Below, one piece after another: positions 10,501 to 46,596 of a DNA stretch of 64,000 nucleotides. A model generated the notes under the pieces. That model was not told the DNA's origin and did not search any database. It worked only from the letters and a program-made list of their open reading frames with translations. Within the stretch, counting starts at the first letter, position 1. Each line of letters begins with the position of its first letter. Where the stretch lies: contig CM082582.2 of assembly GCA_040954595.2 (NCBI GenBank), positions 2,278,303 to 2,342,302 on the forward strand. Reading direction: 5' to 3'. The DNA is from Balanoglossus misakiensis (Eukaryota > Animalia > Hemichordata). The position numbers and the translations under genes were made by a program.

Positions 10501-10792
10501 TTCGACATGTTAGCAAATTACACTCACCAGTAAATCAGCTGACCCCTACTGTAGACGTGTTTCCGTAATCACATTCGTTTTCGGATCCGTCAACCTGAAA
10601 GCTCTGTAGAACAGCTTCGGATTCAAGTGCACAGAGGTCAAACAGCCTCTTCCTGCACAAAGTTTTCACTAGTACAAGGTATATCAACGCATTACACAAA
10701 ATCGACCAAAATATTGCTTTGATGTTGAGCTAAGGTTTGTTGCTATGCGCTATTTTGGCTTGGGCCCGCCATTGCTGCTTGGCAGCTATATT

Positions 10793-15150: not shown

Positions 15151-15364
15151 CTGTAAAACAGGTTCTTTTCGCGACAGGAAATTTTCGCGATATCAAAAGA
15201 AGCAACTGTTATGCATGGATTAATTTTGGCTTTCTCGTATTTCACTAACTGCATTGTTATCTAAGAAAAAAAAACATTTTATGCGACTTTTGTATTTTCA
15301 CATTTTTGGGGGCTCTCGCATATTTCATGAAAATTTATTGCTCGCGAAATAACCTGTTTTACAG
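15151..15364. mobile_element. Tc1/mariner-type MITE
   Basis: ta-CTGTAAAACAGGTT ... AACCTGTTTTACAG-ta (TIR plus TA duplication). Confidence 0.8.
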
Positions 15365-15439
15365 TATCCTCCATGGATTTCTTAACCTACTGATCAAGTG
15401 GGGTAATGTCTTCAGCAACGATTTCTGTAATAAACTTAC

Positions 15440-15619
15440 CTCCCCAAGGTAGTGAAGGTATCTCATAGCTTTCTTTAGAAACTCTTCATCAATGAAACGA
15501 TCCAACTCTTTCACTCTTTCTATATATGTTTTCCATTTGATGACCGGGAAACTGCTCACAATCCATTTGCTTCTTCCATCAAGTATCTTAGCACACAACT
15601 TTGGTATGTATTCTTCTCT
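15440..15619 (-). CDS. Roco gene exon: start of COR domain (REEYIPKLC...AMRYLHYLGE)
   Basis: ttacag acceptor, gtaagt donor, 180 nt, phase 0-0. Confidence 0.85.
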
Positions 15620-17380: not shown

Positions 17381-17529
17381 CTTTGCACTTCGTAGACATT
17401 CACGCAATCTGTGCATATCATTATGCTGCGAGTTGTGACAATTCAGTATGAATGTCTCATCAAGAATATTCAGGTATTTGCCAAAGGTCTTCTGAGCTGT
17501 CTGGAGTATTTCCCTCATCACCAATTCAG
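17381..17529 (-). CDS. Roco gene exon: end of ROC domain (ELVMREIL...LNCHNSQHNDMHRLRECLRSAK)
   Basis: ttgatag acceptor, gtatgg donor, 149 nt, phase 1-0, compatible with both neighbours. Confidence 0.8.
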
Positions 17530-17890
17530 CTATCAAGAAAAAAGTAATGATCTCTTGATAGATTTTTATTTACAAAGTATGGACATATACACAGAAGAGG
17601 CCACTTTGGTGCTGTTTTGTATTTTTTGAAAGCATCCGGTGAAATTCTACATCAATCACACTATCTGAATAGGTAAAATGTTGAATAGTAATGAGATCTC
17701 CTTTTGCATAGGTTCAGATGTAGTATGGGTGTCCCTTTCGAACAGAACAGCCAAGAATCAGCAAAGGTAAAGACAGCGCCCAACACTACATCTGGTTTTA
17801 ATCAGATTGAGTATACTCCTACACCAGGCTCCCAATTGTGTGAATACCCTCGCTCTTGTCACCTTTTATCTAAACATGTACTGAACATAC

Positions 17891-18017
17891 CTTCTTTCTT
17901 GTGTTCAGCTTTCAACAAATCAGCCTTGCTTCCAATCAATATCACTTTTGGTTTACTCCCACCCTCATCCATATCTTGTGGTATGATTGCCTTAAGGAAT
18001 GCAAGCCATGATGTCAC
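17891..18017 (-). CDS. Roco gene exon with ROC G4 motif (VTSWLAFLK...KVILIGSKADLL)
   Basis: ttaatag acceptor, gtatgt donor, 127 nt, phase 0-1. Confidence 0.85.
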
Positions 18018-18322
18018 CTATTAAAGAAAGACATGAAGAAGAATATAAAGTCATCAATCATATTATATTCAATCAGTCCCTAAATCTGGATAAAAACAAA
18101 AAGAGATAAATGTTTCACAAATATATATACTGTGCCATTCATCTTTACTTTAATTTCATTCACAATATTGCACCACCTAATTCACTGATGCACTGCTTAG
18201 TAATAAAAAAAATATTGTAATATATGCACTGTGCCCTTTCTGAGTTTCATCTTTACCTTTATTCCATAATTGCCCAAAATATTAATATCACTTATCATCA
18301 GTAACAAAAAACAACGACCCAC

Positions 18323-18607
18323 CTCTTGTCTCTGCTGTTGCATAAGTTTTCTTGGTGTCCAAACTACATCCTGCTTGTCCTCAGCCATTTTGAAGACCAA
18401 TAAAACCACTGCATTCTCGACTCTTAGGAACATATTATGTGTGACATAGTATTCTGTTTGTCCTGCAAAGTCCCACACACTGAACTTGCCAATCTTGGGT
18501 ATGGATAATGTGGCTACATCTATGGCGGGTGTTGGTGTGTACTGCATGTTCCCTGGTAAAGGTGCTTTCTCTTCTGACCGTCGAGTCAATTTTGCTTGCA
18601 CAAAGTT
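18323..18607 (-). CDS. Roco gene exon with ROC G2/G3 motifs (YTPTPAIDV...FSVWDFAGQTEYYVTHNMFL)
   Basis: atgcag acceptor, gtgggt donor, 285 nt, phase 0-0. WDFAGQ..Y..TH..FL is the ROC signature. Confidence 0.9.
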
Positions 18608-19049
18608 CTGCATTGTAATATATGAACATAAGTGATGATTTTCTCACAATTTAGAGGTTGTAAACTTATAAACGGCAAGCGAGAGTATTTGATTCCGGAT
18701 ATAAGACCTCCCAGGTGAAACTTAGCATATTTGGTGGGAAATAATCACTGAGCGAGGCGAGGCGTTCTGTTCTATGTGTCCCATTTCGGTTATTTTTTAG
18801 TTATTCACTGTTCAGGGTTCAGGTCTTCTCGTTGAGGATATAAACCGCGACTCGGGCCAATCAGCAAGCTTGATTAATGCCAATCATATTGTAATAATAT
18901 AAAATATTTGGAGAATTGGTTGGTCAACAAAATATGTACCCTGATTTCCACTGAAATGTAGTCTTCATGAAAACTTTAATATTTGCACAAATCCTTCACT
19001 CCTCAAAAACAGCAATAATTGGCATTCATAATCAAAGATTTCTACACAC

Positions 19050-19178
19050 CCGCTGCAATGATTCTTTGAGTGTAGTTTTGCCATTCCCACCGTATCCAGC
19101 TAACACAATCTTTGTAGTATTACGTTTGACACCAGGTTGTCACATGAGTGCTGTGAATTCTTTTTGGCGGGAAAACAC
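19050..19178 (-). CDS. ROC P-loop exon, copy 1 (VFSRQKEFTALM*QPGVKRNTTKIVLAGYGGNGKTTLKESLQR)
   Basis: tgacag acceptor, gtgtgt donor, 129 nt, in-frame TGA at 19140-19142. Confidence 0.8.
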
Positions 19179-19900
19179 CTGTCAGAATTTGAACAGATAT
19201 GTTATGTGTTATATATATTGGGAATTTTTACACTCAATTTACATGCCTTTCAATTAAACACCATGTCTTCAAAGAAGTCACATGACATTTTGCTTCAGAA
19301 AAGATATTGATAAAAACGCTAGTATCAAAAAATATAATTTACATTGTTAACTACACTATTATGATGTGCTTATGATGTGGAAGCTATCATTAACACTATA
19401 GAAATAATGCATAGTTAAAGCCTCATGAGCTGCCAAATTTAACATATTTTTTCCATAACTTCTATTTGCATAAGTTTGTCATCTCTTTGTGACGCACACC
19501 TCGATAGTTGTGTACTCTTTGTGTATATTCAACATTGTTATTTTGCAAAATTTGAATTGAAGTCCGGACTAGAATTCATGAGTCAACAATAACAATGGTT
19601 GTTACAGAGACAGGCAATATACACAAGTTGAGTACTGGGCATATTAGCATGCAGTTTGGAGAAGAACATGAAATTGCATTTTGTACACAAAAGGAAAAAA
19701 ATATGGAAATAAAGCCAAAAGTTATAGGTAATGTCCCTTTAATGCCTTCCTAGCTGGCACAATAGAATAAGTATGTAGTTAAAAATTTATATGACAGTCT
19801 GGTTTTATGTTTTCCATGTTATAAATATAGAAGATAAATTCAAATACACTAGTGATATGATATGTTTTCATAGCCATTTATTATCAACATTACGACGTAC

Positions 19901-19960
19901 CTTATGATGGTTGATCAGGTCTCTTTTGTCATCTCTGTCATACACTGAGTTTATAACTGC
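19901..19960 (-). CDS. Linker exon, copy 1 (AVINSVYDRDDKRDLINHHK)
   Basis: atacag acceptor, gtacgt donor, 60 nt, phase 0-0. Confidence 0.65.
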
Positions 19961-20167
19961 CTGTATTTTCATTGATGAAAACAGAACATATATGATTGAT
20001 TATATTATACCAGTATATTGATGGTGTAAATCACGCTATTTTATTGGTCGAGACACGACACGTGACTGTGATATATTAGCCATATACCACAGTCATATAG
20101 CATAGTCAAAGAAAATGCCTTTTTAAAATGTTTTATGCAAAGTTTCAATATACTGGCATAATATAAT

Positions 20168-20313
20168 AGCAATAAAACACCCCCAGCCATGGTATACCAC
20201 TCGATTTTGACCAGTTCACGACATATACGCACTCGCTATTGCTCCTGCGTATATGTCGTGAACTGGTCAAAATCGAGTGCGTATATGTCGTGAACTGGGG
20301 GTGTTTTATTGCT
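20168..20313. repeat. Palindromic non-autonomous element (Crypton-like by architecture); duplicated at ~22370-22515
   Basis: cactcgattttgaccagttcacgacatatacgca / tgcgtatatgtcgtgaactggtcaaaatcgagtg arms around ctcgctattgctcc. Outer arms agcaataaaacaccccc / gggggtgttttattgct. Confidence 0.7.
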
Positions 20314-21251
20314 TAAATGAACTAGCTGTAAAGTACAGGATTATGACAATTATACCACACCATGCATATTATGGACACTATTGTTAAATAATTTTGGTAA
20401 AAAATAAATGGATTTAAATATCCATGTGTCAGGTGTGAGTTGCTGGTAAGCTTTATAAAACTGGTCAATGAGCATCTTTTAGAACAACAGAAAGAGCCAA
20501 TTGGTAAATAACTGAAATACAGCCAAATCTCACAGTCCAAATTGGCCAGTCAGAGTGACTTTCCTAAATTGGCCTTAATAGACAGGTGGCCTGTATATAC
20601 AAGTCAATAATTGCCCATGTTAACTGCACAGGGACTGTAACAAAGTGGCCACTATATAGAGGTGGTCGGTAACTGACACAATTTCACTGTTTTATCAAAA
20701 GTGAGTAACCTTGCCCTTTTAAATCTAACTCAATCTAACTGTACTGCATGTTCCCTGGTAAAGGTGCTTTCTCTTCTGACCGTCGAGTCAATTTTGCTTG
20801 CACAAAGTTCTGCATTGTAATATATGAACATAAGTGATGATTTTCTCACAATTTAGAGGTTGTAAACTTATAAACGGCAAGCGAGAGTATTTGATTCCGG
20901 ATATAAGACCTCCCAGGTGAAACTTAGCATATTTGGTGGGAAATAATCACTGAGCGAGGCGAGGCGTTCTGTTCTATGTGTCCCATTTCGGTTATTTTTT
21001 AGTTATTCACTGTTCAGGGTTCAGGTCTTCTCGTTGAGGATATAAACCGCGACTCGGGCCAATCAGCAAGCTTGATTAATGCCAATCATATTGTAATAAT
21101 ATAAAATATTTGGAGAATTGGTTGGTCAACAAAATATGTACCCTGATTTCCACTGAAATGTAGTCTTCATGAAAACTTTAATATTTGCACAAATCCTTCA
21201 CTCCTCAAAAACAGCAATAATTGGCATTCATAATCAAAGATTTCTACACAC

Positions 21252-21380
21252 CCGCTGCAATGATTCTTTGAGTGTAGTTTTGCCATTCCCACCGTATCCA
21301 GCTAACACAATCTTTGTAGTATTACGTTTGACACCAGGTTGTCACATGAGTGCTGTGAATTCTTTTTGGCGGGAAAACAC
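21252..21380 (-). CDS. ROC P-loop exon, copy 2
   Basis: Identical to 19050-19178, including the TGA at 21342-21344. Confidence 0.8.
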
Positions 21381-22102
21381 CTGTCAGAATTTGAACAGAT
21401 ATGTTATGTGTTATATATATTGGGAATTTTTACACTCAATTTACATGCCTTTCAATTAAACACCATGTCTTCAAAGAAGTCACATGACATTTTGCTTCAG
21501 AAAAGATATTGATAAAAACGCTAGTATCAAAAAATATAATTTACATTGTTAACTACACTATTATGATGTGCTTATGATGTGGAAGCTATCATTAACACTA
21601 TAGAAATAATGCATAGTTAAAGCCTCATGAGCTGCCAAATTTAACATATTTTTTCCATAACTTCTATTTGCATAAGTTTGTCATCTCTTTGTGACGCACA
21701 CCTCGATAGTTGTGTACTCTTTGTGTATATTCAACATTGTTATTTTGCAAAATTTGAATTGAAGTCCGGACTAGAATTCATGAGTCAACAATAACAATGG
21801 TTGTTACAGAGACAGGCAATATACACAAGTTGAGTACTGGGCATATTAGCATGCAGTTTGGAGAAGAACATGAAATTGCATTTTGTACACAAAAGGAAAA
21901 AAATATGGAAATAAAGCCAAAAGTTATAGGTAATGTCCCTTTAATGCCTTCCTAGCTGGCACAATAGAATAAGTATGTAGTTAAAAATTTATATGACAGT
22001 CTGGTTTTATGTTTTCCATGTTATAAATATAGAAGATAAATTCAAATACACTAGTGATATGATATGTTTTCATAGCCATTTATTATCAACATTACGACGT
22101 AC

Positions 22103-22162
22103 CTTATGATGGTTGATCAGGTCTCTTTTGTCATCTCTGTCATACACTGAGTTTATAACTGC
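22103..22162 (-). CDS. Linker exon, copy 2
   Basis: Identical to 19901-19960. Confidence 0.65.
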
Positions 22163-22942
22163 CTGTATTTTCATTGATGAAAACAGAACATATATGATTG
22201 ATTATATTATACCAGTATATTGATGGTGTAAATCACGCTATTTTATTGGTCGAGACACGACACGTGACTGTGATATATTAGCCATATACCACAGTCATAT
22301 AGCATAGTCAAAGAAAATGCCTTTTTAAAATGTTTTATGCAAAGTTTCAATATACTGGCATAATATAATAGCAATAAAACACCCCCAGCCATGGTATACC
22401 ACTCGATTTTGACCAGTTCACGACATATACGCACTCGCTATCGCTCCTGCGTATATGTCGTGAACTGGTCAAAATCGAGTGCGTATATGTCGTGAACTGG
22501 GGGTGTTTTATTGCTTAAATGAACTAGCTGTAAAGTACAGGATTATGACAATTATACCACACCATGCATATTATGGACACTATTGTTAAATAATTTTGGT
22601 AAAAAATAAATGGATTTAAATATCCATGTGTCAGGTGTGAGTTGCCGGTAAGCTTTATAAAACTGGTCAATGAGCATCTTTTAGAACAACAGAAAGAGCC
22701 AATTGGTAAATAACTGAAATACAGCCAAATCTCACAGTCCAAATTGGCCAGTCAGAGTGACTTTCCTAAATTGGCCTTAATAGACAGGTGGCCTGTATAT
22801 ACAAGTCAATAATTGCCCATGTTAACTGCACAGGGACTGTAACAAAGTGGCCACTATATAGAGGTGGTCGGTAACTGACACAATTTCACTGTTTTATCAA
22901 AAGTGAGTAACCTTGCCCTTTTAAATCTAACTCAATACTTGC

Positions 22943-23053
22943 CTGATATACTTTCTCATTGTCAAAATGATATTCCACAAAGGCTCTTGCAATATTGGTG
23001 CCTGCACCCCGCCCAGCCTTCCTTCCTGCCTCTTGACAAGGAGTCACTACGTT
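22943..23053 (-). CDS. Degenerate C-cap ankyrin/linker exon (NVVTPCQEAGRK...NEKVYQ), probable GC donor
   Basis: ttttcag acceptor. CAG|GCAAGT donor gives 111 nt, phase 0-0. Confidence 0.6.
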
Positions 23054-24109: not shown

Positions 24110-26935
24110 TATATGACATATGCTGCAAAATGCAAAGGGGTCACCTTTCTGTAAGTCATGAAGGAAGAGCATGAGAACAATGTCACAAAAATTGAAATGA
24201 AAAGTGTTTTCTTATACAAACAAACAAACAAACAAACAAATGAATAAATATATCCGCATTGATAGAATAAACCTGCAGAAGTCAGGTTGGTATTTACCTT
24301 GTTTTGTATGTTAGCATCAGCTTTGTGTTCCAATAACAATCTGACAAAGCCTTCACCATCATCCCTCCTTGCTGCATCATGCAAAGGGGTGTCTCCTGTC
24401 TATAAGTAATGAAGGAGGAGCATGAGAATAATGTCACAAAATTGAAATGTAATGTGAAATTTCCTTAAACAAAAAAAAACAACAAAAAAACCTTTCAATA
24501 CTTTCAGAATTAACCTGCAGAAGTCAGGTTGGTATTTACCTTGTTTTGTATGGTCACATCAGCTTTGTGTTCCAATAACAATCTGACATGGCCTTCACCA
24601 CCATCCCTCCTTGCTGCATCATGCGAAGGAGTGTCTCCATCCTGTAAGTAATGAAGGAGGAGCATGAGAATAATGTCACAAAAATTGAAATCTAATGTGA
24701 AATTTCCTTAAACAAACAAACAAACAAATAAATGAATAAATATATCCGCATTGATAGAATAAACCTGCTGAAGTCAGGTTGGTATTTACCTTGTTTTGTA
24801 TGTTAGCATCAGCTTTGTGTTCCAATAACAATCTGACAAGGCCTTCACCACCATCCCTCCTTGCTGCATCATGCGAAGGAGTGTCTCCATCCTGTAAGAA
24901 ATGAAGGAGGAGCATGAGAATAATGTCACAAAAATTGAAATCTAATGTGAAATTTCCTTAAACAAACAAACAAACAAACAAATAAATGAATAAATATATC
25001 CGCAGTGATAGAATAAACCTGCTGAAGTCAGGTTGGTATTTACCTTGTTTTGTATGTTAGCATCAGCTTTGTGTTCCAATAACAATCTGACAAGGCATTC
25101 ACCACCAACCCTCCTTGCTGCATAATGCAAAGGAGTGTCTCCATCCTGTAAGTAATGAAGGAGGAGCATGAGAATAATGTCACAAAAATTGAAATATTAT
25201 GTGAAATTTCTATAAACAAACAAACAAACAAATAAATGAATAAATATATCCGCATTGATAGAATAAACCTGCAGAAGTCAGGTTGGTATTTACCTTGTTT
25301 TGTATTGTCACATCAGCTTTGTGTTCCAATAACAATCTGACAAGGCCTTCACCACCAACCCTCCTTGCTGCATAATGCAAAGGAGTGTCTCCATCCTGTA
25401 AGTAATAAACGAGGAGCATGAGAATAATGTCACAAAAATTGAAATATAATGTGAAATTTCCTTAAACAAAAAAAAAAAACAAAAAAATATTTCAATACTT
25501 TCAGAATTAACCTGCAGAAGTCAGGTTGGTATTTACCTTGTTTTGTATGTTAGCATCAGCTTTGTGTTCCAATAACAATCTGACAAGGCCTTCACCACCA
25601 TCCCTCCTTGCTGCATCATGCGAAGGAGTGTCTCCATCCTATAAGTAATGAAGGAGGAGCATGAGAATAATGTCACAAAAGTTGAAATCTAATGTGAAAT
25701 TTCCTTAAACAAACAAACATACAAATAAATGAATAAATATATCCGCATTGATAGAATAAACCTGCTGAAGTCAGGTTGGTATTTACCTTGTTTTGTATGT
25801 TAGCATCAGCTTTGTGTTCCAATAACAATCTGACAAGGCCTTTGCCAACCCTCCTTGCTGCATAATGCAAAGGAGTGTCTCCATCCTGTAAGTAATGAAG
25901 GAGGAGCATGAGAATAATGTCACAAAATTGAAATATAATGTGAAATTTCCGTAAACGAACAAACAAACAAATAAATGAATAAATATATCCGCACTGATAG
26001 AATAAACCTGCAGCAGTCAGGTTGGTATTTACCTTGTTTTGTATGTAAACATCAGCTTTGTGTTCCAATAACAATCTGACAAGGCCTTCACCACCATCCC
26101 TCCTTGCTGCATCATGCAAAGGAGTGTCTCCCTCCTGTAAGTAATGAAGGAGGAGCATGAGAATAATGTTACAAAAATTGAAATCTAATGTGAAATTTCC
26201 TTAAACAAACAAACAAACAAACAAACAAATAAATGAATAAATATATCCGCATCAATAGAATAAACCTGCAGAAGTCAGGTTGGTATTTACCTTGTTTCGT
26301 ATGTTAGCATCAGCTTTGTGTTCCAATAACAATCTGACACGGCCTTCATCACGAAACCTTGCTGCATAATGCAAAAGGGTGTCTCCATCCTGTAAGTAAT
26401 GAAGGAGGAGCATGAGAATAATGTCACAAAAATAGAAATCTAATGTGAAATTTCCTTAAACAAACAAACAAATAAATGAATAAATATATCCGCATTGATA
26501 GAATTAACCTGCAGAAGTCAGGTTGGTCTTTACCTTGTTTTGTATGTTAGCATCAGCTTTGTGTTCCAATAACAATCTGACAAGGCCTTTGCCAACCCTC
26601 CTTGCTGCATAATGCAAAGGGGTGTCTCCTGTCTGTAAGTAATGAAGGAGGAGCATGAGAATAATGTCACAAAATTGAAATGTAATGTGAAATTTCCTTA
26701 ACCAAACAAACAAACAAACAAATAGACAAACACACAATAAAATGAATAAATATATCCGCATTGATAGAATTAACCTGCAGAAGTCAAGTTGGTATTTACC
26801 TCGTTTTGTATGGTCACATCAGCTTTGTGTTCCAATAACAATCTGACAAGGCCTTCACCACCATCCCTCCTTGCTGCATAATGCAAAGGGGTGTCTCCTG
26901 TCTGTAAGTAATGAAGGAGGAGCATGAGAATAATG
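24110..26935 (-). repeat. Tandem array of ~250-bp exon+intron units, one ankyrin repeat per exon (11 intact, 1 degenerate)
   Basis: Exons 24298-24399, 24540-24641, 24790-24891, 25044-25145, 25294-25395, 25537-25638, 25787-25885, 26033-26134, 26291-26389, 26534-26632, 26800-26901. All are 99/102 nt, bounded by ttayag and gtaaa, consensus xGDTPLHxAARRxGxEGLVRLLLEHKADxxIQNK. A truncated, frameshifted unit lies at ~24110-24148. Confidence 0.95.
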
Positions 26936-27066
26936 GCGCCATATTGGAGTGGACGTGTCAGCATCGTCTCCTGCCTGCTCGTATAACTTTTTCAAAATAT
27001 CCCGTTAAAACTTCAAGATTCACAGTAACTCCAAGTCTAAGCGAAGGGTAATATCAAACTACAAAG

Positions 27067-28260
27067 ATGGGTATCAGTTTGCAACTTTGGAGAGGACGCA
27101 TCGGCGGGTTTTCACAACCAAATTCCTGGAAGTGTGTCGAAAGTCATAGCGGTGACGTGTCGCAACGGACAAGGTATTCACGTTGGCCACCTGTTCTTGA
27201 CTATCTGTGCAGAACTACAGCAACAGTTTTCATTATTGAACTGACGTTGTTGGTTGGTTCTCTGCTATCTAAAATTGAAATGGACAACCTAGCCAGCTTT
27301 TCAACCAATGAAGATATCAACAGTTTTATGGAATACGAACATGTCATGGTTTTTGAACAGCGTATGGTTACCAATGCCGTTGCAACAGCAGGTCTGCAAG
27401 GCAACACAGTATTCGTACCCCTTCTTTTGACTTTGAGTGGAGACATTGAATTAAACCCAGGACCTCCAAAAGCGGTTAAGCAGGTAAAATTGACAGAATG
27501 TACTGGTACTCAAAGAGAACTCAGGTCAAATTCGACTCCAACAGTGAGCGAACCGGAGGCCCCAAAAGAAACCAGTCTAGCCGATGTCATACGCGAAATT
27601 CGAGAACTCAAAGTCGACCTGAAAACACAGATTGATACTTCGGTTCACGATGTTCATGATAGAGTTGACGAGTTGAAGGATGAAGTGAATCGTTTGCGGA
27701 GCGAACTGAGAGAAAATTACCAGGAAACTGCTCGATTAGCGGAAGAGAACAAGTATTTAAAAGACAATATAAGCACGGTGTTAAGGGAACTCGACGATGT
27801 CAAAGGTAGGATGAAACGGGATAATCTGTTATTCCACAATATCGAACAGTCGCCTAATGAAACTTGGGACGATACCGAAAACAAAGTGAAGACATTTTTG
27901 TCGGAGAAACTAGACCTAGATGGTAGCAGCTTTGAATTCGACGGGGTTCATCGTCTATCTAATGCGAAAGGTCATCCCCAGCCTATTGTTGCCAAATTCA
28001 CACGCTTTAAACAACGGGAACAAGTCTTACAGAAAGCACGAGGGAGTCTCAAGAACACAAACTTTCGGGTTTCCGAAGACTTTACTCCAAGGGTACGGGA
28101 GACTAGGAGGAAGCTTGGACAGTTTCTACAGAAAGCAAGAGAAGAAGGTAAACGCGCATTTTTGAATTATGACAAGCTAAAGATCGATGGAACTCTATAT
28201 ATTTTCGACGATTCGCTGAATGACATTCGCCCTTTCAACAGAAATCATCGCGATCGCTAG
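27067..28260 (+). CDS. LINE ORF1: N-terminal leader, 2A-like peptide, coiled coil, L1-ORF1p-like RRM/CTD
   Basis: LLLTLSGDIELNPGP, heptad region, NLLFHNIEQ, VHRL...PQPIVAKF, VSEDFT. Confidence 0.85.
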   Translation: MGISLQLWRGRIGGFSQPNSWKCVESHSGDVSQRTRYSRWPPVLDYLCRTTATVFIIELTLLVGSLLSKIEMDNLASFSTNEDINSFMEYEHVMVFEQRMVTNAVATAGLQGNTVFVPLLLTLSGDIELNPGPPKAVKQVKLTECTGTQRELRSNSTPTVSEPEAPKETSLADVIREIRELKVDLKTQIDTSVHDVHDRVDELKDEVNRLRSELRENYQETARLAEENKYLKDNISTVLRELDDVKGRMKRDNLLFHNIEQSPNETWDDTENKVKTFLSEKLDLDGSSFEFDGVHRLSNAKGHPQPIVAKFTRFKQREQVLQKARGSLKNTNFRVSEDFTPRVRETRRKLGQFLQKAREEGKRAFLNYDKLKIDGTLYIFDDSLNDIRPFNRNHRDR

Positions 28261-31200
28261 GGGTCAGGCCGAAGCCGCAATACACGGTATGATGCAGACA
28301 CGAGTAACACCAGCTTATATTCTGAACATGGCAAAGATACTGACACTCAGTTTATTTGCTGGAACATTAATGATTTAAAATCTAAATTTCTTGACGGCGG
28401 ATTTCATGTCTTTTTTGACAAAATCGGATTTTGGTGTAATTTGCCTGACGGAAACGTGGGCTTGTACTTCAGATCAGTTTTCTATTCCCAATTACACTTC
28501 TATCAACCTTGCTAGAAAAAAGATTATGCATTTAGGAAGATTTTCAGGGGGTATTTCAGTTTTTGTCAAGAACTCAATATGCAAAAGCTTCCAACAGCTG
28601 CCAAGTTTGTCCGAGGATTTTCTATGGGTAAAGCTGTTTCTCAAAGATAACTTTCAAATTAATTCATTGTTAATGTGTGTTGTCTACTTCTCACCAGAAG
28701 GGTCATCTCAATATGCAAATCCAGAAATGTTCCAATTGTTAGAAAATGAATTAGCAAAATATTCAACCATTCACGAAGGCTCGCCTGTAATTTTATGCGG
28801 CGATTTTAATGCCCGCACAGGCTGTGTCTCTGATACTATCGAATGGGATTCCAGGTGTTTGCCAGTGGATGACAGTGACGTAGATCCACCTTTGCCAATA
28901 CGAGAGTCAAGAGATTCATCAGTTAATGATTATGGTAAACGGTTACTGGATTTTTGTCACAGCACAAATTTTAAAATTGTTAATGGGAGATTTTTTAAGA
29001 ATCATGGAAGTGGTGAGTATACATTTCTTTCCAAAAGCGGGGGCAGTGTGATAGATTACCTTTTGTTATCTTGTCATGATCTTCACCTGTTAACAGATAT
29101 GTATATTGATTCTAGGGTTGAATCAGACCACCAACCACTGATATTTAAATTAGACCTGTCTCACCAAGAGAGAACAAGTCTTACGTCTGATTATAACAAT
29201 GTTAATAACTCTTCTATATTTACTTGTAAATGGGATAATAAGTTACTCAATGTAGTTAACAACTTTTGGAACAGCGCATCTTCAAACTCACATGTGTCTG
29301 AAATCAATGGGCTTCTCTCTTGAGGGGAAATAGACAATGCTGCGCTTTGTCTGAGGGATACAATTTGGAACTCACTTTCATGTATGAAAACAGGTGGCAT
29401 GGGTAGACGAGTGAAAAAGACGAATAATTGGTGGGATGATGAATGCCGTGAATTTAAAGCCAAAGTTAAGAATGTCCTTAGAAACCATAAATATAGTCCC
29501 ACCCCTATTTCATTCGGTGTCTATAAATCCATCCAGCGAGATTATCACAACCTGCTGAAAGAAAAGAAAAGGAACTATGATATATTGAAACAACGTAATT
29601 TTGCCGAAGCCGCCAAGGACCCGAATTCTAAGCGTTTTTGGTCCATGTTGAGACCTTATACCCCGGGTCCCCCTGATTCAATTACTGCTAAGGAATGGGT
29701 TGATTACTTTTCTGTTTTATTTAATACTCCTGGCAATTTACACGACGATTTCCAAGATTTTTATGTGGAAGTCGACGAGTTTGTAAACAATTCGTTTTCA
29801 TTTCATGATCCTGTATATACGGATGTAGGCACAGACGTTGATACCAGTGTTCTGGATAGTGAAATATCACTTGAAGAAATAGATTGTGCAATTAATAACC
29901 TGAAATTGGGTAAAGCTGCAGGCGTTGATGGCATACCTGCGGATTTCTTTAAGTATTCATGCCAAGAATTTAGATTAATTTTGTATAACTTTTTCAATAG
30001 TGTTCTCAACTCAGGTATTTTCCCAGAAGAGTGGGTTAAAGGTATGATTATCCCTCTTTTTAAGAAAGGGGTACATGACTCTGTGTGTAACTATAGGGGA
30101 ATAACTCTTCTTCCTATTATTGGTAAGATTTTTTGCAATATGATGTTCAAGCGTTTAAATGACTTTGTTGAACTTAATTCGCCAATCACTGAAGCTCAGG
30201 CTGGTTTTAGGAAGAACCGCAGCACAATTGACAACATTTTTATTTTGGATACTACAATATGGAAATACTTATCCAAACACAAATCACGTTTTTATGGTGC
30301 ATTCATTGATTTCGAGAAAGCTTTCGATAGAATTGATCACAACGACTTGTTTTATAAATTACTGAAACGTGAAATGAAGAGTAAAATGCTTATAGTGTTA
30401 AAATCTATGTACAAATCGGTGAAATCATGTGTACGAACACCACATGGGATTACAAACTTTTTCCAGTGTACTTATGGTGTGCAACAAGGATCTGTTTTGT
30501 CCCCATTATTATTTAATCTTTTCATCGATGATCTTGGCGAAACCCTCAAAAATGGCATGTTTAATGGTGTTTATGTAGGAATTTTGAAGCTCTTGTATCT
30601 TTGCTTTGCTGACGATTTAACAATTGTAAGTAATTCAGTAATTGGACTACAAAGACAGCTTAACAAATTGTGTATCTATTGTAACAGATTGAAACTAAAA
30701 GTTAATGGGTCCAAGACAAAAATTTTTGTCTTCAGGAGTGGGGGAAGGTTGAAAAATTACGAGAGATGGACATTGAATGGGGTCCAGGTTCAGACAGTAC
30801 CGTATTTTAACTACCTCGGTCTGACCTTGTCTTGTTCAGGAATCTGGACAAAGGCTCAAGAAATCCTTGCCAAACAAGGGAAAAAAGCTATGTACAATAT
30901 TAAAAGATATCTGAGTCAGTTTAAAAACATAGACATAGAGCTAGCTCTACGAATTTTCGACTGCAAAATTCTTCCAATACTTATGTACGGTAGTGAAGTA
31001 TGGGGTTTTCATGAGGGTAAGGATGTTGAAAAAATTCAAATAGATTTCTGTAAATATATACTCATGGTTAGTTCAAGGTCAACCAATTTAGCTGTCTTGG
31101 GTGAACTGGGCAGACAATCTTTGAAAACGCTTCGTCTACCACGCATTATTAAATACTGGGTAAAATTAATCCATAGCGAAAATTATAGATATACTAAGCA

Positions 31201-31804
31201 ATGTTATGACTACCAACGTGAAATGGCAGACAAAGGTTATAATTGTTGGGCCAAAAAGGTCAAAGACCTTTTATTTTATTTTGGTTTTGGTATTGCCTGG
31301 GAGTCACAGGCTGTGGGAAACGAGTGTCTTTTTCTTTCAAATTTTAAACAAAGATGCCTGGATATTGGTCAGCAGGTATGGCACAGTGAATTGGTCAATT
31401 CCACTAAGATGGATTCTTATCGTCTATTTAAAAATAATTTGTCTTTTGAAAAATATTTGAATTGTGTAAATATTGAGCTATTTAGAGTCACCCTTTGTAA
31501 ATTTAGAATTTCAAACCACAAACTTTTAATAGAGAGTGGCCGCTTTGAAGGGTTAACAAGAGATAACAGAATTTGTCAGTTTTGTACTTTACAGCAAGTT
31601 GAAACGGAATTTCACATTTGTCTTATTTGCCCCATCTACAAGGAATTAAGAACACGTTTTCTCTCACCATTCCACTATCAGCAACCCTCATTGAAGAAAT
31701 ACTCTAGCCTGTTAAACTCTCAAAACCTCCACACCTTAGTTAATCTGGCAAAGTTTATTTATTATAGTTTTAAGTTAAGAGATAATTTATTGCAGGACAC
31801 TTGA
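28261..31804 (+). pseudogene. LINE ORF2 (AP endonuclease, reverse transcriptase, C-terminal CCHC), with one frameshift near 28388 and one stop at 29321-29323
   Basis: CWNIN, CLTETW, GDFNAR, IDY, SDHQP, QAGFR, FIDFEKAFD, GVQQGSVLSP, FADD, CxxC...H...CP. ORFs 28391-29323 and 29384-31804 share one frame. Confidence 0.9.
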
Positions 31805-32093
31805 TCGCATACACGTCTATTTCTGTTTTGATGGCATTGTATCTATTATGTCAATGTAAGCCCCACTGCATGTCTGTATATTTATCAGTTTAATTATTGT
31901 ATGAAGGCCGGTGGCCTAAGATACTGAAATAAATATATATATATAATGTCACAAAATTGAAATGTAATGTGAAATTTCCTTAAACAAACAAACAAACTAA
32001 CAAACAAACAAACAAATAGACAAAGACACAAACAAATGAATAAATATATCCGCATTGATAGAATTAACCTGCAGACGTCATGTTGGTATTTAC

Positions 32094-32195
32094 CTTGTTT
32101 GGTATGGTCACATCAGCTTTGTGTTCCAATAACAATCTGACAAGGCCTTCACCACGACACCCTCTTACTGCATAATGCAAAGGGGTGTCTCCATT
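32094..32195 (-). CDS. Ankyrin cassette exon separated from the array by the LINE (NGDTPLHYAVRGCRGEGLVRLLLEHKADVTIPNK)
   Basis: Same splice signals and intron flanks as the array units, 102 nt. Confidence 0.9.
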
Positions 32196-35003
32196 CTGTA
32201 AGTAATGAAGGAGGAGCATGATGAGAATGTCAAGAAAAATGAAATGTAACATGAGGTTATTTTGTTAAAATGAACGATCGAACAAACACACAAACGACAA
32301 ATAATCGCAAACTCCCTTGTGGATAATATTAACCAACAGTAAATGGCATTTGAACAGAAACAGTATCGACTCTACACACAAGATGTGTAATTCAGTTTTA
32401 TACATGCATTTTAACGAGCTAAAAGAATTCTGACAAAATATCTGCCAGTTGATACAGAAAGAAAAGTTACTATAAATAATTCACAAACAAACTCAAATTT
32501 GACAACTTGCAAAACAGATAACATTACGGATAACCAATACACCAATTTTAAACTGAACTTTATTTATGATTTTCTATCAAAAAACTGACAGTGATGTGAT
32601 GTTAGTGAACATTTCCTGAATGGGACAAATTTATTTTTGCAACCTGCACAATATAGAAGAAGATTTAGCAAACAACTACAGTGACATTTAGTAGAATTGT
32701 CAGAAGAATTTTGAATAATCACATCTCATCTCCAATATGATGACAAATTTGAGATATGTAGAGATTTATGTGGAAACAGATCAAACATCTGAGCTAACCA
32801 AACTATGTTTATTTCCTGTAGGAGGGCATCAGACTGTTCTCAGCACAAAGTAGCCAAGCTGTGCAGACTGAACGATGTCGATCAAAGGGGAAATAACAGA
32901 GAAATTGTATGTGACAAGGGATAAATCAATCATCATTAAAATAAATTTCTACTGAGTGGTCCAACAATATCAAGTAGAGTTGTGCAATGGTGTCACTCGT
33001 TATTTGTAGAAATAGTGTTTAAATAAAAAAAACTTGAATTTCACCAAAAAAAAACCATCTGAAGAAAGTTAACACTGATTCCCTTTCTCCATCGCACTGC
33101 ATCAAAAAGTCTAATAACCAAAGAAAGACTTCAGTGGACACTGTGGCCAATGGGAATGTGTGGCAAACAAAATTAAATGCAATGAATGCAGTCATTCTTT
33201 TCATGTAATATAAAGAACAAACAAAATTATCAAAACTCTTCATAAGAGATAACATTGGAAGCCACAGTAGCACTAACTTTCAAGGACATTTGTGTAACCA
33301 TTCCAGCCGTGCCCCACACTAAAACAGAACAGATTGGACCAGTCACACTTCCCTTAATCCTATTGTTCCCAATGTTTATCTCATCAATATATCTATTGCA
33401 TGCTTTTAGCACCTTCTCTCAGGTTCTGGAACCTGGTTGGTTAAAACTTGCTGTTCTGGCCATCTTGATCACCCCCTTTGAAATGATTGGGTAAGTGACA
33501 GACAGTGATGAGAAGCTGAGGAGTGGAGCCGCACAGACCTCATGTTTTATAAGCTTGAGCTATTTCCAAGAGAAAGAGCAATCCAAATGCTGCCGCTGTG
33601 TTGCTCAGAATGATGAAAAAAATCATCCGACTGAACAATTTAATGTTAAAATGTAATATATTTTATAAAGTTTATAAAAGGTAAATTGGGTTGGCACTGT
33701 GCTATTCGGCCTGAAGTACAAGCTAAAACTGGCCGACTCCTCTCGGCACCGTCAACAAGCACCCCTGCCCCCAGCAAGTCCCCAACTTGACATGTGTGAT
33801 GTGACCATGGCTGCGCATCCGTCCTTCGGTCCTAAAAGTTGCCAAACAAACCCCTTTTTAAAACGGCCCCAATCAGAGCCGCAATGAAAACAAGTTCTTC
33901 TGGTAAAGTCTTACTCAAAATGTTGCTATGACTATAATTCTGACACAAAACTGAGCATGAGTGTGGACTGATTGCATAAACATATTTTGAAAGTACTTCC
34001 TGTAAAAAAGGGAGGAGGCTCCATAAACCAGACTATTTTTGTTTATGTACATGATATACTTGTGCGAGGGTTGTCAACTTGATAGCCATTCTCAAGATTT
34101 ACAATCATTATAAGAGTGTACGTATACAAGAAAAGTAAATTCCTGAATATTAAAGGGACAAAGTCTCTCTCTCTCTCGCTTCCCTTTTTCCATTAATTAT
34201 GTTTGATACAAGACACTGTTTATGTTATTCTACATGTGTATGTAGTGAATTAACGTTCGACCACACACAAATATGCAAAGGAGAATTTATTAATAAGCCA
34301 TACCCACCAAAATCTTATCAGATCTAGAACTTATCATAACAATGCTACATACAAAATTTCATATCATTGGATTCAATTTCTCTCAAGATATGAGTGGAAC
34401 AAAATCTGTCTACAGAAGGACAGACAGAAATCGCTGTGCCAATAATGAGATTATTATTTAAACCACAAAAGATTGACGATAAACAATGCAATAAACAACA
34501 ACATCCTTATGTTCAACAAGACAGTTTTTGGCAGATGCTGGAGACAATCCCCCTTTCTCATAACTCCAAATTGCTCACAGTGGAGATCAAATGTCTCAGA
34601 TATAGGAGAGACAATCACATCACCATAATGAATCAATACTTGCCTGTGTCTGGACAACACCTGGCCGAGAGGAAGTAGTTTTGATTCAAAGGACAGTGAC
34701 AAATTATATGGCACCTCCTTATGATGAATTGTATTAGGTACCAGACAGGAGTTGGCAGATGCTGGAGGCCGACAGACAATCACCCTATCTGATACGTTCT
34801 GTGATAGGATTGGCATGGACTGTCATCAGTCTATCTGTACAACACCTGACCAATGGAGGGAGTAGTTTTGATTCAAAGGGCAATGGACAAATATATACAT
34901 TGTATCCCAGACACAATTTACTAAGAAAACTACAGAGGAAATGGCACTATTGAGAAAGCTCATACTTTTAGAATTTACCTGCAGAAGTCAGGTTGGTATT
35001 TAC

Positions 35004-35105
35004 CTTGTTTTGTATGGTTACATCAGCTTTGTGTTCCAATAACAATCTGACACGGCCTTCACCAACATCCCTCCTTGCTGCAGAGTGCAAAGGGGTGTCT
35101 CCCCA
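35004..35105 (-). CDS. Ankyrin cassette exon (WGDTPLHSAARRDVGEGRVRLLLEHKADVTIQNK)
   Basis: ttacag/gtaaat, 102 nt, homologous intron flanks. Confidence 0.9.
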
Positions 35106-35274
35106 CTGTAAGTAATGAAGGAGGAGCATGAGAACTATGTCACAAAAATTAAACGTAATGTGTAATTTTCCTTAAACAAAAAACATACAAACAAACAAAC
35201 AAACAAACAAAAAATGAATGAATAAATCATTCCATACTGATAGATTAACCTGCAGAAGTCAAGTTGGTATTTAC

Positions 35275-35373
35275 CTGGGTTTGTATGGTAACATCAGCTT
35301 TGTGTTCCAATAACAATCTGACACAGCCTTCACCACCAAACCCTGCTGCATCATTCAAAGGGGTGACTCCATC
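35275..35373 (-). CDS. Ankyrin cassette exon (DGVTPLNDAAGFGGEGCVRLLLEHKADVTIQTQ)
   Basis: ttacag/gtaaat, 99 nt. Confidence 0.9.
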
Positions 35374-36195
35374 CTGTAAGTAATGAAGGAGAAGCATGGG
35401 AACAATGTCACAAAAATTGAAATGTAATATGAGGTTTCTTTAAACAAACAAACAAACAAACAAACCTACAAATAAATAAACAAATATCAAAAGTATCAGC
35501 CATATTGCAAAAAAACAAGCAAGAATGGCATACTGACTGATTTGAAAGGATAATGCACAGTCCTTCTACACACAAAATGAAAATTGCCGACTGTTAAAAT
35601 GAATACAGATCAAAGAATGACGGTGAAGAATCTCAATTGATTCTAACAGCGAGGAAAACGCTTTGACTGGTCATATAGTTTTTAACATTGGATGGTTTAG
35701 ACTCCATAGCTTAACTAAGGATGGAGGGGATCTGGAAGATTTAAAAAAAGATTGCCAGCAAAATTTCAGAGATGGCTTGAAAAAAAATAAAAATTTGTTA
35801 ACTTTGGTGAAACACAAAAAAATGCATCAAAATTTACTTTCTGGAACATATTTATTCATTCGGAACAAATGTGTCAAATACACTATGGTTCAACATCTTT
35901 GGCTAAATTGTAAAGATTGTTAAATTTAGAGTGCAATGTGTCCCACTGTCCTTCCTATGGCTGGATCCCAAGGGTATCATGGTTAGTAAAACTAAATCAG
36001 TATGGGTAATACTTTTTGGCCTTTCCCTCTTCTTGTTCAGGGTTAGCTTGTTTCTTCCCATTGAATTTGGATCATGCAAAGTAATTTTGGATGAAAATAA
36101 GAGTGTTGTAATTAGGTCTTTCTCAAAGGCATTTTTTTATTATCCAATTGTGTGGCCACATTATCCATAATAAAGTGATAAGTCAGTTCACGTAC

Positions 36196-36294
36196 CTCAT
36201 CCTTCGCATTGACATCTGCACCATGGCTAATCAACATCCTGACAGCATCCAATTTACCTTTGAAGGACGCTGCATGCAATGCTGTGGAATCATT
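36196..36294 (-). CDS. Unique ankyrin exon (NDSTALHAASFKGKLDAVRMLISHGADVNAKDE)
   Basis: ttccag/gtacgt, 99 nt, canonical ankyrin consensus. Confidence 0.9.
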
Positions 36295-36554
36295 CTGGAA
36301 TAAAGACGTTTAATGTTGGAATAAAAATGACATCACAAATCTGATACTTGCAATGTGAGTCAACTGCTTGATCTTTTGATGAGGAAACTCTAGGAATTTC
36401 ATCACAATGAGCTTCAGTCACTATTGTAATAATGGTTTTGATTACGATGGTGTGTTATTTCAGTAATAGACTGATATAGATTTGATTCTGAAAGATCATA
36501 ATAATAGTATTTTCTAAGGTTGAGTGACAATTCTCTATGACCAAAACACATGTA

Positions 36555-36724
36555 CAGTAAAACCCGTCTAATCCAAAGGGACAGAAGAAATTGTTCAGTT
36601 TACAGACGTTTCTGGTTTGTAAAGGTTCTTTTAACATGTGGTTCTATGTCAAGGGGACAGGAAAATGTGTTCATTATAGACAGTTTTCCAGATACGGCAT
36701 GTTCCATTTCGACAGGTATTACTG
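36555..36724. mobile_element. pogo/Tc1-type MITE
   Basis: ta-CAGTAAAACCCGTC ... GACAGGTATTACTG-ta. Related copy at 44123-44273. Confidence 0.7.
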
Positions 36725-37547
36725 TATGTGGTTGAACCACATTGAACCAAACTGTAGACTGATACCATGTTCACACTAGGTAAAACTGGAACTGTTGATG
36801 AAAAAGTCTGCACTGAATTGAGATTATTTATATTTGTGGGCTAGTGTAGTTCTGTTTTGCACAATCTAAATGTGGTGTTGTGATATCATTTTGGGAGTGT
36901 GTGGTATTTTGGAAGTTCATAGATATCTAGTTGATTCAGTGTTACTGTTGTGTGAAAAGCCAGTCACTCATAACCATTGAAATGTTTCTGAAACGTCTCT
37001 GCTCAAATGCCGGCATAAAATATTACATGTGAACAGTTGAAGTGGTCCTGGAACATTTCAGGGGTTCAGCTAGTGCTACTACAGTAACAGCATCAGGGGT
37101 GCTATAGAAAGCGGCGTGGCAAACTGCAATGATGTATTTGCAAACAGAATAGTGCGATGGACCTTGAAAAACACCCCAGTTGAGAATTAGTTCTTGCCAC
37201 AGAGAATTTGAAACACCATAGTTGACCCCTAAAAATACTGCTTGCAGCAGACCTCTCCGTGTCTGTAAGTTTATCTTTATGGAAGAATTGACATTAGGAA
37301 TATCTTGTTTGCACCAAGAATCCATTTTATTTCGACAAAATTCGTTATTTTAAAAATATATTTCTATTAAAAGTTGTTACTTACCAAAAACCCAGGCTGT
37401 CTATCGTTATTTTGTTGCACGTAATTGAAATACAGTTTCACACAATTTTTTTAAGTTCCTGCATGCACCGCATGTGAAAAATTAAATATCAAACGCTAGC
37501 CCTGAGCGATGACTCTGTATAAAACATTGGTCAATACGAACACTTAC

Positions 37548-37646
37548 CTGTCCTGGGTATTTACCCCTTGCATTGACATCATATCCATCAGCTATCAGCG
37601 ACTGAATCTTTGCAACATCACCCTTCACTGCGGCATTGATTAGATT
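37548..37646 (-). CDS. N-cap ankyrin exon (NLINAAVKGDVAKIQSLIADGYDVNARGKYPGQ)
   Basis: ttacag/gtaagt, 99 nt, phase 0-0. Confidence 0.85.
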
Positions 37647-41629: not shown

Positions 41630-41984
41630 AATATGGCGTTTACTGTAATTTGAATCATGGGAAAAAAAGCGCCAGGACCAACTTCCGCCCACCATGGTGT
41701 GGGTGATACCATTCTCCGATTGGTGTCACTGGGCGACAGACTAGGTGTATTTTCATAGCTATTGTTTGTTCTTTGCATCAGTTGATAAACAATCATCAGC
41801 AAAGTCGAAAATTTGTCATCTATTGACAGTTTTCATGAGCTATAACCCATGAAAAATATGCAAATACGCTTAGCTTGTGATGCAGTGATACCAATCGGAA
41901 AATGGTATCACCCACACCAAGGTGGGCGGAAGTTGGTCCTGGCGCTTTTTTTCCCATGATTCAAATTACAGTAAACGCCATATT
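41630..41984. mobile_element. MITE with ~100-bp TIRs
   Basis: aatatggcgtttactgtaatttgaatcatggg...gtcactg / cagtgatacc...cccatgattcaaattacagtaaacgccatatt. Confidence 0.85.
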
Positions 41985-44273: not shown

Positions 44274-46596
44274 AAGGTTGAAAATTAATTCTATGTGGCC
44301 ACTGAAGTTTCTTGTGCTACTCCCAACAATATGTTGGAACCCACAATTTATGTATAAAATACCTTCCACTAAATATTCAAATGTCACCAAAAACATTTGA
44401 CTCTAAATAAATAAATAAACATATTCAATAAACACATATTTTGAAGACAAGTTGCATATTTGCTTGTAAAAGTAGTAAAATCTGTGATAGCATTACACAC
44501 CCACAGGCAATGTTGACAAGTGAAGTAAGGGTATATTAGCATGCTGTTTGGAGTTGTTTTTGTTGTTGTTGTTGTTCCTTTATTCCTCCTCGAAATGAGA
44601 AGAGTTACATCAACACATTAAATTACAGAGGTACTACTATACTAAATTATATAGGATGGCTTCCGACAAGAAGCATTTCACGGTACTAAATTCAGTTCGC
44701 AAGGCATATTTGTACAAGGTCCAGCACATTTTCTTGAAGAGTTGCTTGTTCACCAGACTCCTGGTAGTCAACCATGTAAATTCTATCTCCTAAAATATTA
44801 GCAATGAAGGCAAGATCATTTGAGTTGTAAATTGTTGTAGAAACAGTAATGCTCATTTTGTCGAAAAGACAGTTCCAAAAAGAGTCCCTTGCTGTTGTTG
44901 TATGACATTATGACATATTAAGATAGACCAATCTAAGTTGTAAAATAAAATCATGAAAATAATGCAAAAGTGGCATCTCTTGAGATTTTATGCAAGGGCA
45001 ATTGACACATGACCCACCACACACGTACTGATAAGAAAGGGAGTATATAAGAACCACGTTGGCAAACATTTTAAGGCAAATATTGACCAGCTGTCATAAA
45101 ACTGTCAGATATTTTATTGCTCTTATAGAGAATGGCCTTCACCTGTATCTGATTACATGTTGGAGTCAGTGAGACTCCATGTGTACCAGCCTCCAGTGTG
45201 TAATTGTTATCAGCACCGCTCAAGTTAATTCATACTTATTGTATTAAAACTTAAACGTTTACTATTGTTCCTATTAGCCAACATCGATTGAATTGTTATT
45301 AATATCAGCGTGTTCACACTCACTCATGTACTAAGTAAAGAAGTGTAAATGACATCCCTGTCCACACAAGACCACTATAAAAGTCATAAGTTTGACCTTC
45401 CATTAATTAGGTTTCTGTGACTATTCCCTAGGTATTGTTGTTTTTGATATTCTGATGGTTTAGTTTGAAGTTTATTGACATGCTGTCTGTTCAGCTTGAT
45501 ATGTACAGGTACATATCAGAAGCAATTTACTATGAGTCTAAAAGATTAAATACTGTTTGTTATATTGGCTTTACGGGTATAGACTTTGACAGAAACCACT
45601 CAACACACTTAATTTATAGCTCAGAATGTTTGTTTAGTCGCTAGCAAATAAATAACACTCCACCACAATCAAGTAACAAACAAGCAAACACTTTTCTACC
45701 AGATCGCGTTAAAGTCAGGAATTATCATGAGCTACAGTTTATACAGCTTTTTGGCAAATATTGTAGCAACCATGGTCCTTTTAGAGCGATAGTTTCTGAA
45801 TTGCCATAAGAGGCTGTGGTATATTTGCATGTTTTAATTATTAATCAGGCAATTCAAGCTTCCGGGACACAGTACCATTCAGCACATGCGTCTCATAAAT
45901 GTATGGACATGTAAATTTTAAGTGTTACTTTGCCATGCCGATTGGCATTATTTTTTCTACTGCAGATCGCTGCCCTGCGTGAGTGTTGGGTGATTGATGG
46001 TGATTCCCTCCGCCGTTTCGGCTTTTCGTGTAAATCACAGTCGAGGAGTTTACGTGTATTTAATGCATGTTCGCGTGTCCGCTTATTATCCAGAGACTTC
46101 AGTGGAGTCGCCTAGGTGTGACTGTCATAAGGATACCGCTCGAACAAGTATACAGTAAATCATGACATGTTGAGTAGATATTGTATTTCAAGAGATATAT
46201 TTTAGAAAATTGGGCCAATGTAGCCTCTACAGGCAGAATTGTGTGTATATTGGAGAGAAAAAAATCATTCAGACTATATTACAGTTCTGTATTCAAACCC
46301 ATGTCCACGATCCTATACATGCAGTGATAGGACAGGCATACATTTCAGGCTCTGTCACGTCACTGTGTCTACAGCACTTTATATAGCTATGTCAACCCAG
46401 CTGTCACATATATTGTGAATGGCTAACGCCATAACGGCATCATCCCTGTATTCTGACTATTCGTAATGGTAATAAAATAGTACTGAAATGACTGGTACGC
46501 CATACAGCATTACAATCAACAAAAAGTAAAAAAATAAATAAAAAAGTAAACAAAAAAAACCAGGAAAACATTTTTAAAATACCAATAAAATTATGA

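Follow-up and report, generated by a model that had tools for sequence, protein, structure and literature searches.

A 64,000-nucleotide stretch of the Balanoglossus misakiensis genome (GCA_040954595.2, contig CM082582.2, forward-strand positions 2,278,303 to 2,342,302; henceforth the window, numbered from its first base) carries on its minus strand a gene that joins an array of ankyrin repeats to a Roc-COR GTPase module. We find that the repeats of this gene are encoded one per exon, that exons and introns were duplicated together as units, that the coding sequence is interrupted by an in-frame stop, that the gene belongs to a family of ankyrin-Roc-COR proteins without a kinase, and that relatives in this family repeatedly carry homogenised arrays specific to the individual gene. 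The interpretation we favour, as probable but by no means secure, is that the array grew by unequal recombination, that members of the family act inside the cell as sensors, switched by a GTPase and with a death fold as their predicted output, and that the copy in the window is a null allele or young pseudogene.

An earlier note on this DNA had described sixteen one-repeat, phase-0 ankyrin exons of 99 or 102 nt, and the gene model agrees: all 16 exons have one of these two lengths, all are phase 0-0 (16/16), and the first of them, U1, ends at 37646 as the note has it, although it is one base off the frame that the note implies (Table 1). Vertebrate ankyrin genes also devote one 99-nt exon to each repeat, a point of general background for which our literature search gave no source. 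The 14 near-identical cassettes with co-duplicated introns that the note had reported are likewise present. They span 35373 to 24298 on the minus strand, comprise ten exons of 102 nt and four of 99 nt with AG/GT splice sites, and are 83–100% identical in DNA, with 13 of the 14 distinct in sequence. The cassette introns (140–169 nt) are copies of one another, the 11 exon-plus-intron units from C11 to C1 are 85–98% identical, and Tandem Repeats Finder describes 24121–26723 as 10.5 copies of a 250-bp period (score 4068). Because the introns were duplicated along with the exons, duplication at the DNA level is required. As all ankyrin exons are phase 0-0, the architecture also permits cassettes to be gained, lost or skipped without a frameshift, as had been proposed.

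At the protein level, the 14 cassette repeats have a mean identity to the majority residue of 0.86 and a mean pairwise identity of 0.80, by a measure of our own and not by T-REKS. They thereby reach the approximately 85% identity over at least 100 residues by which NLRs of high internal conservation are recognised. The Pfam Ank family scored above its cut-off for U2, with 40.2 bits, and for C1, with 34.4 bits. No Pfam family matched U1 or the cap exon (22943–23053), yet both align to the same parts of relatives from Ptychodera. Several cassettes contain an in-frame GT 84 nt into the exon, within a GTG or GTA valine codon (24540–35105, minus strand), a possible alternative donor that would produce repeats of 28 residues.

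The exons at the limits of the array are as the earlier note described them, except that its lower coordinate, 24110, falls in a broken fifteenth cassette, C0, and not in an intact exon. C0 follows C1, has an intact acceptor, has lost 2 nt and is then fused to unrelated sequence resembling 34647–34713. It is the one broken same-strand copy that we found in the window, and no cassette copies were found on the opposite strand. The array is broken up by a 2.8-kb intron and by a 5-kb long interspersed nuclear element (LINE). This LINE is nearly intact, with an ORF1 of 402 aa and an endonuclease and reverse-transcriptase open reading frame (ORF2) that has one in-frame stop, and it ends 33 nt from the C11 acceptor, such that the splice signal was spared. 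A search of the window for the exon carrying the start codon gave 22 candidates, none of them convincing; in the nearest relatives the N-cap repeat starts 10–25 residues after the initial Met.

Beyond the array, the model continues through the cap and linker exons into Roc and the start of COR, for a total of 885 codons and 22 introns, all GT-AG bar one GC-AG. The exceptional intron is the one that follows the cap exon (22942, minus strand), and its donor, GCAAGT, looks strong. The ROC domain named in the earlier note is confirmed by a match to PF08477 (33.4 bits against a cut-off of 27) and by the presence of all four motifs G1, G2, G3 and G4, and the 60 COR residues in R5 match the COR profile with an E value of 2.6e-23. 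Two pairs of Ptychodera isoforms, which like all isoform pairs of relatives considered here are automated gene models, differ by exactly the segments that match R1 (43 residues) and R3 plus R4 (92 residues), and so provide independent confirmation of the exon borders in the window.

This copy as assembled cannot, however, encode the intact, working switch that had been envisaged. The only stop in the 885-codon model is the TGA at codon 608, 15 codons ahead of the P-loop. A tandem duplication repeats the linker exon, R1 with its TGA, and the beginning of R2, whose incomplete copy leads into a second stop. When a profile of the missing 420 positions of COR and C-terminus was compared with 2788 six-frame segments of the window, in a search in which a control profile recovered R1 to R5, the best E value was 0.89. 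The remaining 15 kb of the window after R5 holds a LINE fragment, 240-bp repeats and a Helitron, so the distal COR and C-terminal exons may lie beyond the window edge. The copy in the window is thus likely a non-functional null allele or young pseudogene.

Table 1. Features of the ankyrin-Roc-COR gene in the window, in the order of its transcription.
Feature	Position	Strand	Remarks
U1, N-cap-like ankyrin exon	37548..37646	-	99 nt, phase 0
U2, unique ankyrin exon	36196..36294	-	99 nt; Pfam Ank
Cassette C14	35275..35373	-	
Cassette C13	35004..35105	-	
Cassette C12	32094..32195	-	
LINE retrotransposon in C12-C11 intron	26935..31940	+	antisense to gene; 5-bp target duplication
Cassettes C11-C1	24298..26901	-	11 exon+intron units, ~250 bp each
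C0, broken 15th cassette	24110..24152	-	acceptor and first third of exon, frameshifted
Cap exon	22943..23053	-	111 nt, phase 0, GC donor
Tandem duplication, 2202 bp	18538..22941	.	2 mismatches in 2197 nt
Linker exon	22103..22162	-	60 nt; second copy 19901-19960
R1, P-loop exon	21252..21380	-	129 nt, phase 0-0; codon 13 of the exon is an in-frame TGA; repeated with this stop at 19050-19178
R2, Roc switch I and G3 (DFAG)	18323..18607	-	
R3, Roc G4 region	17891..18017	-	
R4, end of Roc	17381..17529	-	
R5, start of COR (60 residues); final exon of the model	15440..15619	-	

A protein search with exon R2 returned 142 matches, 24 of them at an E value of 1e-10 or better. Ptychodera flava accounted for eight of the first ten and Saccoglossus for one, and of 20 further matches that we looked up 19 could be named, all from hemichordates, echinoderms or amphioxus. 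Neither of two R2 searches gave a same-species homologue or any match closer than 63%. The closest relatives are kinase-less 'DAPK1-like' ankyrin-Roc-COR proteins of P. flava, with approximately 55% identity over 290 Roc-COR residues. In a quick, midpoint-rooted tree, which informs placement and not the order of events, the Roc-COR of the window is sister to a Ptychodera clade (SH-aLRT 98), within a clade whose named rows are hemichordate, a placement that by itself makes an enteropneust origin likely. We saw 16 P. flava gene models, several of which are short or domain-deficient and some of which are possibly haplotigs. The window gene and its relatives have ankyrin repeats, and no leucine-rich repeats (LRRs), ahead of Roc-COR. 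No protein-kinase family gave a match in the 21 and 8 relatives scanned, and orthology to DAPK1 was rejected on the lack of a kinase.

CARD, Death, caspase or GT4 domains were present in 7 of 21 relatives scanned. Amphioxus and brittle-star members (P0031, P0032 and P0053) end in a GT4 'conflict' glycosyltransferase, in CARD plus caspase, or in CARD plus Death plus DUF4559, an echo of bacterial Roc-COR conflict systems. A predicted model of another relative, P0143 (pLDDT 81.5, pTM 0.79), matches the Roc-COR of LRRK2 and of the Chlorobium Roco protein (CtRoco); a sequence search of the PDB with the family profile gave only ankyrin proteins among the 60 matches listed. The family likely works as a set of fast-changing intracellular sensors.

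To describe arrays across the family we used 39 stored protein rows with ankyrin motifs and a P-loop, in which repeats, counted by motif, numbered from 1 to 16 per row. The median nearest-repeat identity was at least 0.85 in 7 of the 39 rows, corresponding to six genes from Ptychodera, Glandiceps, Saccoglossus, Amphiura and Branchiostoma. The expectation of paralogues with their own homogenised arrays is thus borne out at the protein level, in other species, and there the repeats cluster by gene. The nearest repeat lay in the same gene for 14/14 repeats of the window and for 15/15, 15/15, 12/12, 7/7, 6/6, 13/16, 6/7, 3/4 and 7/8 repeats of relatives; for two short arrays in relatives the counts were 0/3 and 0/4. 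As the genes with homogenised arrays sit on separate branches of the tree, homogenisation arose repeatedly.

Within the 14 cassettes of the window, 32 of 102 sites are variable. All 14 cassettes agree at every base of a 32-nt stretch in helix 2 (0 of 100,000 permutations), none of them contains a stop or frameshift, their splice sites are preserved, and indels in the exons comprise whole codons only, indicating that the array was not decaying at random. Variation concentrates at ankyrin positions 3 and 10, at the turn between helices 1 and 2 (a one-codon length difference), and at positions 19 and 30–31. The variability profile tracks that of the relatives (rho 0.45, p 0.009), and the surface set of positions is more variable than the remaining ones (p 0.017). 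With regard to recombination, all four gametes occur in 33 of 78 site pairs (minimum number of recombination events, Rm, 6), and the exons of C3 and C6 are identical while the introns after them are different. The four-gamete pairs fit a mixing of variants. Taken on their own, the cassette data fit a constrained frame with free or mildly favoured change elsewhere, and leave diversifying selection unproven.

We propose that symmetric 250-bp units would mispair, and that crossing-over and conversion would then alter the repeat number and mix variants with no frameshift. The concave face of the ankyrin stack would bind a ligand, binding would shift the nucleotide or dimer state of Roc-COR, and a C-terminal death-fold, CARD, caspase or glycosyltransferase module would relay the signal. 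Rapid birth and death of such genes would leave broken copies, of which the window gene may be one.

Several results weigh against this proposal. The ratio of nonsynonymous to synonymous variation per site (pN/pS) among cassettes is 1.20 (95% confidence interval 0.58–3.67), no departure from neutrality, and the minimum changes, 34 nonsynonymous and 8 synonymous, give a p value of 0.38. In a strict DARPin set of positions pN is 0.16 and pS 0.13, and positions 5, 13 and 14 barely vary. The DARPin-like, diversified binding surface proposed in the earlier note thus does not emerge from this array: DARPin-type positions are not the most variable ones, and diversifying selection is not significant, the interval for pN/pS spanning 1. 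Some changes would damage the repeat core, namely TPSH in three cassettes, TLLH in one, and Arg, His or Cys at helix-2 position 19 in four. It speaks for the proposal that in eight repeat sets from seven relatives, positions 2, 3, 5, 10, 13, 14 and 33, which from DARPin and ankyrin work we take to form the binding face, are more variable than the rest (0.49 vs 0.19, p 6e-5), but any ankyrin stack should vary at its surface, and these sets had been picked for internal similarity. In a distance-decay test, recombination gave no significant signal (p 0.15), which leaves room for homoplasy. As to the output, Pfam Death gave no match in the nearest relatives, although it is seen in more distant members, and the last 115 residues of P0143 form a predicted six-helix end with Atlas TM scores of 0.56–0.60 to Death clusters, under the bar of the tool; for these relatives a C-terminal death fold is no more than a lead.

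A rival explanation takes the array, with no receptor role, to be the product of neutral amplification akin to that of a minisatellite, begun after the gene had died. It would account for a pN/pS near 1, for the core-damaging substitutions, for an exon divergence (0.098) close to that of the introns (0.114–0.118), and for the company in which the array is found, that is, the stop, the broken cassette, the LINE insertion and the missing C-terminus. We nonetheless consider this explanation unlikely: 14 cassettes free of stops and frameshifts, with invariant splice sites and an invariant helix-2 block, speak against it, as do a variability profile that matches the arrays of intact relatives and the recurrence of similar arrays in other family members.

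We are slightly more sceptical of the idea that diversity arises mainly from combinatorial skipping of cassette exons in an intact allele, as in algal ROCO genes and NLRP3. Every cassette is phase 0-0, alternative splicing of repeat exons is reported in excerpts of PMC11378527 and PMC6642158, and one amphioxus RefSeq isoform pair, out of five pairs compared, differs by exactly 99 residues, or three repeats, in the exon register of the window. This last case is an automated model, though, and two other isoform pairs skip Roc exons, resembling splicing noise. Moreover, the splice sites are the same and strong in every cassette, the introns are short, and nothing points to mutual exclusion. In comparison with mutually exclusive exon arrays of the Dscam type, all cassettes here can be included together in frame, and the proteins of relatives carry many tandem repeats.

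It is improbable that the lesions (duplication and stop) or the number of cassettes result from misassembly of what is an ordinary intact paralogue. The read evidence consists of contigs, short relative to the array and with their listed joints in other repeats, from DNA runs (X1 and X2 among three) of one sample, perhaps the source sample. The depth of X1 contigs is 909–991 inside the duplicated block and 945–973 outside it; that it is not doubled casts doubt on the duplication, though contig depth is no measure of copy number. On the other hand, 13 of the 14 cassettes differ, so they are neither collapsed nor invented copies, and the TGA in R1 is a CpG-type change from Arg, the residue found in 3 of 16 relatives listed, with a second CpG-type change located in R5. 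X1 and X2 contigs have G at 15465 in R5, encoding Thr where the window sequence has Met, and Thr is present at this site in all 12 matched relatives (19 examined). In addition, one X1 contig stops at 21343, one base short of the base that creates the TGA. The Thr codon and the contig end hint that the sampled animal may hold a sounder allele or copy. X1 depth is approximately 950 over the gene body (15320–22789), and some contigs from other repeat copies have depths of 30–45; the gene body as a whole may be multi-copy.

We give little credence to a decoy role, in which R1 is skipped, or the stop is used, to yield an ankyrin array without a working GTPase that competes with intact paralogues: the model without R1 is open for 842 codons, and in Ptychodera one RefSeq isoform is missing precisely the 43 residues of this exon, but if the duplication is real, skipping must extend to the extra copy of R1 and to the truncated one of R2, and a stop codon far upstream of further introns normally triggers transcript decay. 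Exon skipping, assembly error and a decoy are not fully exclusive of the reading we favour, that of a sensor family with recombining arrays and a broken copy in the window.

The window also contains a number of other elements. A Helitron with an intact reading frame of 2449 aa (868–8214, minus strand) encoding an OTU protease, Rep, PIF1 helicase and endonuclease lies downstream of the last COR exon, with 243-bp tandem repeats (9799–10473) upstream of the frame. Several copies of an element with internal 237–240-bp tandem repeats, 77–92% identical between sites, occupy 10738–13500 and 56600–63700 and probably represent a non-autonomous transposon family. At 47485–54901 on the minus strand are two 98% identical LINE reverse-transcriptase fragments (47485–49361 and 51489–53364) and an endonuclease piece. 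Upstream of the gene, a 54-codon ATG-to-stop frame (44695–44856, minus strand) has protein-like composition and lies in a 71-aa frame without a Pfam match. Palindromic elements resembling miniature inverted-repeat transposable elements are present at 8819–9177, 20168–20313, 22370–22515, 41630–41984 and 54059–54241.

The gene invites comparison with several systems that we know from excerpts of the papers cited. Brown algal ROCO genes for candidate receptors, with one LRR per exon, undergo shuffling and splicing and include many pseudogenes (PMC3341825, PMC11378527). They share with the present gene one repeat per symmetric exon ahead of Roc-COR and membership of an expanded family, rich in pseudogenes, whose repeat domain is remodelled by recombination, in the present case probably so. 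The window gene differs in that it is animal, has ankyrin repeats instead of LRRs and is strongly homogenised within the gene, and the inverted intronic cassette copies of the algal genes were not found here. Fungal NLRs (NACHT-ANK proteins included) have near-identical ANK repeats with repeat-number polymorphism and positive selection, and such conservation is present in only 0.8% of metazoan ANK, TPR and WD repeats (PMC4986451). High internal conservation has since been extended to ATPase-bearing proteins of all domains, in an account whose excerpted text has Roco only in the reference list (PMC13449251). Like these NLRs, the family studied here sets near-identical ankyrin repeats beside an NTPase switch and cell-death-type effectors, with gene-specific, repeatedly evolved homogenisation and an association with transposons. 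Unlike them, it has a Roc-COR GTPase in place of a STAND ATPase, an N-terminal sensor and an exon for each repeat, and positive selection is not significant in the window cassettes.

Within the Roco proteins, the excerpted text of PMC6337361 lists three groups, none of them kinase-less with ankyrins only. The DAPK1 group resembles the present family in its ANK-Roc-COR order and its lack of LRRs; a C-terminal death fold, for which the nearest relatives give a lead, may be a further resemblance. The family differs in lacking a kinase and a calmodulin region, and in being multi-gene, with variable repeat number and C-terminal effectors. Bacterial LRR-Roc-COR (AP-GTPase) systems that counter invaders with variable effectors (PMC8195603) likewise combine fast-evolving N-terminal repeats, Roc-COR and variable C-terminal effectors, GT4 among them, but are LRR-based, prokaryotic and without exons. 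Exon-modular LRR splicing is described for NLRP3 (PMC6642158), and TIR-Roco and Roc-caspase proteins for molluscs and annelids (PMC9334734, PMC11463336).

As regards novelty, which the earlier note could not confirm, our literature search turned up no animal Roco gene described as having a homogenised ankyrin array, a weak absence in that it covers main texts only; the main texts of the genome papers on Asymmetron (PMC13012124) and on a brittle star (PMC11310086) had zero term matches. The idea is less new in that fungal NLRs have been reported to carry ankyrin arrays of this kind (PMC4986451). What we describe is a new combination of known parts, real and well formed: an animal gene that sets an array of ankyrin cassettes before a Roco switch, on a principle published for algal LRR-ROCO and fungal ANK-NLR genes.

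A bolder extension of these findings, which we offer tentatively and with limited confidence, is that acorn worms, echinoderms and amphioxus possess an undescribed receptor class that parallels the NLRs. Its members would be ankyrin-Roc-COR proteins that lack a kinase and signal through a death fold, a caspase or a glycosyltransferase. Their exon-per-repeat arrays would repeatedly become homogenised, and unequal recombination together with exon skipping would reshuffle them into a natural DARPin-like repertoire. The locus in the window would then be a member that exploded recently and whose sister allele or copy is intact. As the window copy is broken it is a poor model, and better ones are to be had among its intact relatives, for instance XP_070546714.1 (Ptychodera), XP_077996864.1 (Glandiceps) and XP_078594975.1 (amphioxus). 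What is known of Roco proteins in animals comes mainly from LRRK2 and DAPK1. Should the many 'DAPK1-like' RefSeq entries from marine deuterostomes prove to be variable sensors, Roc-COR would serve animals as an NLR-like switch, and the exon-per-repeat ankyrin array would be a diversifier that can be tested directly across individuals.

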